This document shows positions 58,145 through 60,051 of a stretch of 64,000 nt of DNA, piece by piece. Location of the stretch: the NCBI RefSeq assembly GCF_003334335.1, contig NZ_QOWQ01000020.1. One strand, 5' to 3'. Below the pieces are notes generated by a model that worked only from the letters and a program-made list of their open reading frames with translations, had not been told where the DNA came from and searched no databases. This DNA comes from Escherichia coli (GTDB taxonomy: Bacteria > Pseudomonadota > Gammaproteobacteria > Enterobacterales > Enterobacteriaceae). The position numbers and the translations under genes are program-made. Positions within the stretch are counted from its first letter, which is position 1. Each line of letters opens with the position of its first letter.

Positions 58145-58408
58145 TCAGGCGCGGATTTGTTGTGATGTGGTTGTGCTCTGGCAGATGGCAACGTGTGCGA
58201 CGTCCACCAGTTTATTTAACTGACTAAACAGTAAGTCGACCGACCGTGGGCTGGCAACGGTCAATTCGATATTTATATTTTGTGCATCGCTGGCGGCGGC
58301 CATATTCATTGAGCAGACGTGGAAACCACGATGACGCACCACGCGTAAAACACGTTCTAAGGTTTCTGGATTGAAGCGAGCCGATACATTGACCTGATGT
58401 TGCATCAT
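58145..58408 (-). CDS. ilvM: acetolactate synthase II small subunit
   Basis: 87-aa [32 protein letters not shown]; start overlaps ilvG stop. Confidence 0.95.
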
Positions 58409-60051
58409 GATAATTTCTCCAACATTTCTGAATTACTGGCGCCAGGCGGCACCAGCGGCCAGACGTTCTCAAGTTCGTCGATTGAGACATGAAGCAGGTA
58501 TGGCCCATCACTGTTCAGCATGGTGTCGAGTGCCGCTTCAACCTGGTCTTTCCGGGTGATGTGTTGGCCATGGATGCCGAAGGCGCTGGCTAACATGAGG
58601 AAATCGGGGTTATCAGTAAGGGTGGTTTCGCTGTATCGTTCCTGAAAAAACAGTTGCTGCCATTGTCGAACCATCCCTAACCGTTGGTTATCGAGTAAGA
58701 CGATTTTCAACGGTAACTGCTTGCGTTTTACGGTGCCCAGCTCTTGCACATTCATCATGAAAGAGCCGTCACCGGAGATACAGACAACGGTATCGTTCGG
58801 TCGCGCGACTTGTGCGCCAACCGCCGCCGGTAAACCAAAACCCATGGTACCTAAACCGCTGGAGGTGATGAAATTTTCCGGGCGAGTGTGGGCGATGTGC
58901 TGCGCAGCCCACATCTGGTGCTGCCCCACATCTGTGGTCACGACGCAATCCGCAGGTTTACGATCCGACAGTTGTTTTAACAACAACGGCGCGTAGATAG
59001 CGTCACCGGGATGGTCGTAACGCCAGGAATGTTCATCACGCAGCTGCGCGCAGTGTTGCTGCCAGTCATTGATATTTAACGGCTGCTGTAATGCTGGTAA
59101 CAGAGCATTTAAATCACCTTGTAATGCCACATGTGCCTGACGCAGCTTGTTCATTTCTGCCGGGTCGATATCCATATGGATAACACTGGCGTGTGGCGCG
59201 AAGGTGTTCAGTTTGCCGGTCACCCGGTCATCAAAACGTGCGCCCACGGCGATCAGCAGGTCACACTCCTGCACCGCGAAGTTTGCCGCTTTGGTGCCGT
59301 GCATCCCCAGCATGCCCAGATAGTACGGATAATCTGCTTCTACTGCGCCCAGCCCTTTCAGCGTACAGGTGGCAGGCATTTTTGTGGCAGCGAGAAATTC
59401 ACGCAAAGCCGGAACTGCCTGCGCCATACCCACGCCACCGCCAACGTACAGCATCGGTTTTTGCGCTTTTGCCAGCATCTGGCGCGCTTGCTCAACTTCG
59501 GCATGTGGGAAAGTCACTTCGTTTTCAACGGTGGTGAACCACGGTTCCAGGTCACCGCTGGCTAACTGGATATCTTTTGGGATATCGACCAGAACCGGAC
59601 CAGGACGACCTGAGCAGGCAACGTCGAATGCTTCAGCCATGATGCGCGGCAACTCTTCCAGCGACTGCACCAGAAAGCTGTGCTTGGTACAGGCTAACGA
59701 CAATCCCAGGACATCCACTTCCTGAAATGCGTCAGTGCCGATAAACGGTGCGGACACTTGACCGGTGATGGCAACAACAGGGATGGAATCTAACAGTGCG
59801 TCCGCAAGCCCGGTTATCAGGTTGGTTGCGCCCGGACCAGACGTGGCGATACATACGCCAGTTTTGCCGGTAGCACGAGCATAACCGATAGCCGCCATTG
59901 CCGCACCCTGCTCATGTCGGCATAGCAAGTGCTCCACGCCGCCGTCATACAATGCATCGTAAACCGGCATAATTGCGCCACCCGGATAACCGAAAACGGT
60001 GTTCACACCCTGTGCCCGCAACGCATGTACCACCCACTGTGCGCCATTCAT
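58405..60051 (-). CDS. ilvG: acetolactate synthase II large subunit, intact reading frame
   Basis: Uninterrupted 548-aa [40 protein letters not shown] (TPP enzyme). Confidence 0.95.

Follow-up and report, generated by a model that had tools for sequence, protein, structure and literature searches.

An uninterrupted 548-codon ilvG in a 64-kb stretch of DNA from a probable close relative of Escherichia coli K-12

In the 64,000-nucleotide stretch of Escherichia coli DNA analysed here (referred to as the window), ilvG, which encodes the catalytic subunit of acetohydroxy-acid synthase (AHAS) II, was found as an intact gene of 548 codons at positions 58405-60051 of the minus strand. Taken together, the comparisons reported below make it almost certain that this interval holds an ordinary, ancestral and functional ilvG allele, and that the host strain is very closely related to K-12 but lies outside both of the sequenced K-12 lineages. 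For the purposes of annotation, ilvG is here a normal coding sequence of 548 amino acids and not a pseudogene. It should be noted that earlier publications have already covered the K-12 lesion, its phenotype and the finding that early K-12 stocks and other E. coli do not carry it, and that the ilvG coding sequence equals alleles that have been deposited many times; the gene itself brings no new biology.

The open reading frame listing contained a single uninterrupted frame over 58405-60051 (minus strand), running from ATG to TGA with no internal stops, in agreement with a preliminary description of this DNA in which ilvG had been presented as an intact 548-codon gene. The random expectation for 548 stop-free codons is (61/64)^548, or about 4e-12, so the open frame is not due to chance. 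In a comparison with NCBIfam equivalog NF006524 (acetolactate synthase 2 catalytic subunit; curated cut-off, 738 bits), the translated product reached 1073.9 bits, and its residues 1-547 could be aligned to positions 1-547 of the 548 positions of this profile without any gap. Three Pfam domains were recognized in the protein: TPP_enzyme_N (PF02776, residues 1-115), TPP_enzyme_M (PF00205, residues 186-321) and TPP_enzyme_C (PF02775, residues 374-522). The last of these includes the thiamine-diphosphate binding motif (GDGS...DNQ), which a motif search of the translation placed at residues 427-456 (58684-58773, minus strand), and the conserved glutamate is present at position 47 within RHEQGA. 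By every feature testable from sequence, the gene belongs to the IlvG equivalog family.

The difference from the K-12 allele could be located to the base. All 1645 bases of the MG1655 pseudogene b4488 (NC_000913.3 3950560-3952204) were identical to ilvG in the window, and pairwise alignment revealed a single 2-base gap in MG1655, at gene nucleotides 977-978 (AT), which correspond to positions 59075-59074 of the window. These bases belong to an ATAT run (gene nucleotides 977-980; 59072-59075, minus strand) of which MG1655 has one AT unit only; the site reads TTAAATATCAATGAC in the window and TTAAATCAATGAC in MG1655, and the missing unit constitutes the entire K-12 ilvG lesion. The TGA triplet at 59066-59068 (minus strand) is out of frame in the window, where it is read as part of AAT GAC (N328 D329), whereas it is an in-frame stop in MG1655. 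Translation of both alleles showed that the MG1655 frame continues to ...QQPLNQ and then meets the TGA as codon 328. This stop falls just past the central domain, and the MG1655 allele is without TPP_enzyme_C and the GDG...N motif. Thus, the 2-bp loss puts the TGA in frame and thereby deletes the entire C-terminal ThDP domain in MG1655.

With the additional AT present at 59074-59075, the TGA out of frame and no internal stop, the window has neither the 2-bp loss nor the codon-328 stop that define the allele of MG1655, W3110 and EMG2. The preliminary description had held that this was not the frameshifted K-12 allele, and had suggested that K-12 is two bases shorter at this point, which brings a TGA into frame; alignment and translation proved this right in every detail. 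The codons that it had quoted for the site, CAG CCG TTA AAT ATC AAT GAC TGG (QPLNINDW), are indeed present as residues 323-330, but they lie at 59062-59085 rather than at 59063-59086. In the paper on the E. coli W genome, the K-12 ilvG lesion is described as "two separate base pair insertions" (PMC3032704). This description is contradicted by our alignment, in which the lesion is a single 2-bp deletion in K-12. A practical consequence is that MG1655 coordinates are displaced by 2 bp beyond the ilvG site, with more displacement at the 1-bp and 12-bp indels described below.

The occurrence of the two states was surveyed in 5426 complete E. coli genomes. ilvG was found in all of them, and at least 80% of the gene was covered in 5424. 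An 80-mer over the K-12 junction had exact matches in 340 genomes; five evenly sampled members of this class (ER1709, three assemblies of MG1655 and JM83/DCM188-6-type strains) were K-12 laboratory derivatives, and the K-12 derivative Stbl4 likewise had an 80-nt span at the junction. On the other hand, every non-K-12 match that was sampled spanned 82 nt, that is, contained the two extra bases, and these matches came from different phylogroups, including ST131, O104:H4 and O157-type strains. The 82-mer of the window's own junction was found exactly in 1405 genomes, and most of the others differed from it by SNPs only, with the 82-nt span retained. Intact ilvG has also been reported for E. coli W, B and Crooks (PMC3032704). 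The NF006524 profile, which represents many species, fits the intact frame without a gap as well. Because both the genome survey and the multi-species profile follow the intact frame, these comparisons indicate that intact ilvG is the ancestral state and the norm of the species, and that the K-12 form arose from it by deletion of 2 bp.

The other members of the ilvLXGMEDA operon could all be placed on the minus strand around ilvG. The 32-codon leader peptide gene ilvL lies at 60191-60289, and its translation, MTALLRVISLVVISVVVIIIPPCGAALGRGKA, is rich in Ile, Val and Leu. It is followed at approximately 60135-60170 by the ilv attenuator, a G+C-rich hairpin and then eight U residues, which was identified by RNA folding (-23.3 kcal/mol, z = -4.0 relative to shuffled sequences). 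A simple terminator scan of the minus strand did not report this attenuator, while direct folding showed the hairpin clearly. The small 16-codon ORF ilvX (60054-60104) is located immediately upstream of ilvG, and ilvX is annotated at the matching place in MG1655. Rfam family RF02744, named "Soft rot Enterobacteriaceae Rev 39 5'UTR", matched 60071-60363 (minus strand) with 157.4 bits, which is the region of the ilvL leader, attenuator and ilvX. Downstream, ilvM (58145-58408) encodes the 87-aa small subunit of AHAS II, and its product reached 133.9 bits on the NCBIfam equivalog NF008362 (cut-off, 68 bits). The TGA of ilvG overlaps the ATG of ilvM (ATGA), which would be in keeping with translational coupling of the two genes.

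The remaining genes of the operon are ilvE (branched-chain amino-acid aminotransferase, 309 aa; 57196-58125), ilvD (dihydroxy-acid dehydratase, 616 aa; 55281-57131) and the last one, ilvA (threonine deaminase, 514 aa; 53734-55278). The ORF listing had a longer, TTG-start version of ilvE; its ATG-start version was identical to that of K-12, as was ilvA. At the DNA level, the leader region (60052-60330), ilvL, ilvX, ilvM, ilvE and ilvA were base-for-base equal to those of MG1655. In ilvD, codon 443 (window position 55805) is AAC in place of GAC, giving a D443N substitution relative to both K-12 and HSP425, a clinical isolate considered further below. This change appeared to be private, as an 80-mer around it had no exact match in the 5426 complete E. 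coli genomes. In solved dihydroxy-acid dehydratases, K, S or G occupies the position aligned to residue 443. A possible inactivating effect of D443N was rejected on the basis of this variation, and the substitution is probably neutral. We also observed a run of A residues on the ilv strand at 60414-60420, within the AT-rich intergenic region between yifB and ilvL and some 130 nt before the ilvL ATG, which has seven residues in the window and HSP425, and six in MG1655, WG1 and NCM3722.

IlvG is expected to act as the ThDP-dependent catalytic subunit of AHAS II, in partnership with the small subunit IlvM, and both proteins would be expressed from the attenuator-controlled ilvLXGMEDA operon. In the branch that contains MG1655, W3110 and EMG2, loss of one AT unit has created the codon-328 stop and so removed the C-terminal ThDP domain. 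Of the three E. coli isozymes, AHAS II alone lacks feedback inhibition by valine, AHAS I and III both being inhibited. Because AHAS II escapes this inhibition, valine-resistant growth can be predicted: with ilvG intact, AHAS II should be made, and established knowledge leads us to expect that a strain with the window allele should grow in the presence of valine. Ribosomes would also translate on into ilvM, and the Rho-dependent polarity on ilvEDA that is seen in K-12 should then be gone. Valine resistance and unattenuated ilvEDA expression are thus the two predictions that would follow from the intact gene.

Several published observations bear on these predictions. AHAS II has been described as the valine-resistant isozyme, and MG1655-type K-12 strains, in which AHAS I and III, both valine-sensitive, are the sole isozymes, are starved for isoleucine under valine (PMC6483228). 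Mutations that restore the ilvG frame in MG1655 confer valine resistance, and relief of polarity has been discussed in the same context (PMC8605374). According to Parekh and Hatfield (1997), as cited in PMC8605374, the part of ilvG beyond the premature stop of K-12, some 660 nt, is not translated, and the stop exerts polarity on ilvEDA.

To place the genomic background, the entire window was compared with K-12. Its reverse complement was collinear with positions 3946612-4010596 of MG1655, with 99.956% identity over 64 kb, and the differences amounted to 13 SNPs and three indels (one additional A at 60420, the AT of ilvG, and 12 bp in hemX). Of the 11 SNPs in coding sequence, seven were synonymous (in wecB, rffG, rffM, thrP, hemY, hemD and cyaA), and transitions and transversions were mixed. 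Among the non-synonymous changes relative to K-12, rep K202E (49329) and wecF R356G (32019) were common to HSP425; xerC S174C (13791) lies beyond the stretch that was compared with this isolate. HSP425 was the best match to the window, from which it differed by 7 SNPs in 37 kb, and four of the SNPs relative to K-12 and the 1-bp indel were common to both. A megablast search with window positions 40000-64000 and 1-25000 against the 5426 complete E. coli genomes found none that was identical. As the SNPs are mostly synonymous, of mixed type and in part common to HSP425, they are best read as natural polymorphism, and other small differences from MG1655 in this K-12-like, non-K-12 background should be regarded in the same way. 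A mutagenized K-12 production strain was considered as a source and rejected, given the mixed and mostly synonymous SNPs and their partial occurrence in a clinical isolate.

The preliminary description had proposed that the DNA came either from a non-K-12 strain or from an ilvG+ derivative of K-12. The intact gene is insufficient to decide between them, because K-12 strains with intact ilvG exist. The gene is annotated as an intact, 1647-nt coding sequence in K-12 WG1 (CP099590) and NCM3722 (CP011495). The rph and ilvG lesions of EMG2, MG1655 and W3110 are absent from WG1, which resembles NCM3722 and LS5218 (Browning et al., 2023, PMC9997739), and LS5218 likewise has an intact ilvG (PMC5699524). 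By this comparison, intact ilvG alone cannot distinguish non-K-12 from K-12 strains, and taken by itself it is not a valid marker of the former. An ilvG+ K-12 strain, whether one in which the frameshift had reverted spontaneously or been repaired by engineering, or one of the WG1, NCM3722 or LS5218 type that never carried it, would explain why ilvG equals that of MG1655 apart from the AT and that of WG1 and NCM3722 completely, and also the identity of ilvL, ilvX, ilvM, ilvE and ilvA to K-12 within a window that is 99.956% identical to MG1655. However, it would leave the rest of the window unaccounted for. When WG1 was compared over the full window, it had the state of MG1655, and not that of the window, at all variable sites except the ilvG AT, so that this AT is the sole difference between MG1655 and WG1 within the same 64 kb; NCM3722, which was compared over 27000-64000, was like MG1655 at the 9 SNPs and the 1-bp indel of that stretch, again with the exception of the ilvG AT. 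The window therefore matches the background of neither MG1655 nor the WG1/NCM3722 lineage, from which 13 SNPs, the 1-bp indel and the 12-bp hemX indel separate it over about 50 kb. In addition, the mainly synonymous and mixed spectrum of these SNPs points to natural polymorphism and not to mutagenesis, part of the differences (4 SNPs and the 1-bp indel) recur in a clinical isolate, and published revertants regain the frame in other ways, for example by 1-bp deletions in the TGA (PMC8605374). An ilvG+ K-12 origin thus appears extremely improbable. Since the window departs from both MG1655 and WG1 by the 13 SNPs and two indels, the non-K-12 alternative of the preliminary description is favoured, and on these differences the background is that of a close, phylogroup-A-type relative of K-12 and not of K-12 itself.

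A hybrid origin, in which the ilv region of a closely related ilvG+ donor entered a K-12 recipient through P1 transduction or conjugation, deserves mention on account of the distribution of the differences. Window positions 1-13790 (pldB to xerC) are identical to MG1655, whereas the other 50 kb differs every 3-4 kb or so, a pattern that could reflect a recombination boundary at about 13.8 kb. Yet 13.8 kb without a difference is nothing unusual between near-identical genomes of phylogroup A (the Poisson probability at the observed density is about 0.03, which is indecisive), the window showed no junction, marker or scar, and the other boundary would have to fall outside it. We consider a hybrid most unlikely. 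Nothing was found to suggest that the frame is open but IlvG inactive, or that an error of sequencing or assembly produced the two extra bases, and either possibility seems exceedingly unlikely: 1405 complete genomes have the identical 82-nt junction, the same +2 length occurs in sampled genomes of other phylogroups, the protein equals WP_001012607.1 of WG1, NCM3722 and HSP425, and it fits NF006524 from end to end without a gap. A further idea is that a close relative or hybrid of K-12 absent from complete RefSeq genomes combines intact ilvG with IlvD D443N and the A7 run, and that this combination could alter branched-chain flux or operon expression. We regard this as very unlikely; position 443 is variable in solved homologues and A7 is common to a clinical isolate, so neither feature gives a sign of such an effect. 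The reading that we prefer is still that of an ordinary ilvG allele in a natural, non-K-12 relative, and no feature of the sequence speaks against it.

Several other features of the window were recorded. The hemX gene (21531-22724, plus strand) encodes 397 aa in the window and 393 aa in MG1655 and WG1. The additional residues correspond to the 12-bp indel, an in-frame expansion of a TGCACC hexamer repeat at about 22658-22684, by which KPAPAP near the C-terminus gains two Pro-Ala dipeptides; it looks like a repeat-slippage polymorphism. The pseudogene yifN, which is related to PemK/MazF-like toxins, was placed at 50149-50597 (plus strand) by coordinate transfer from MG1655, and this interval is equal to that of MG1655. 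In WG1, NCM3722 and HSP425, the annotation of the equivalent gene records a frameshift, and the decay of yifN therefore appears to predate the K-12 lineage. The end of the window also contains 5S rRNA, tRNA-Asp and tRNA-Trp genes (Rfam matches at 63583-63910). An A-to-C difference from K-12 and HSP425 was observed at 63992 in the 23S-5S spacer, 13 nt beyond the 3' end of the 23S rRNA gene (rrlC).

The systems closest to the one described here are the intact ilvG genes of other E. coli strains. In K-12 WG1 and NCM3722, ilvG (WP_001012607.1) has the same 1647-nt coding sequence, the same position in the operon and the same overlap with ilvM as in the window. This allele is also found in many phylogroup A isolates, for example ML35, NCTC86 and HSP425, and in HSP425, where it is annotated as WP_001012607.1, the ilvG DNA is identical to that of the window. 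Among solved structures, no match to IlvG was deposited as E. coli AHAS II, and the closest was IlvB of E. coli AHAS I (PDB 6lpi; E = 6e-162). IlvB (6lpi) and plant and yeast AHAS enzymes (for example, 1ybh and 1n0h) are full-length homologues that match residues 2-544 of IlvG with E-values from 6e-162 to 1e-145. All of these enzymes have the three-domain ThDP/FAD architecture in common with IlvG, although 6lpi and the plant and yeast proteins are paralogues, or orthologues of other isozyme classes.
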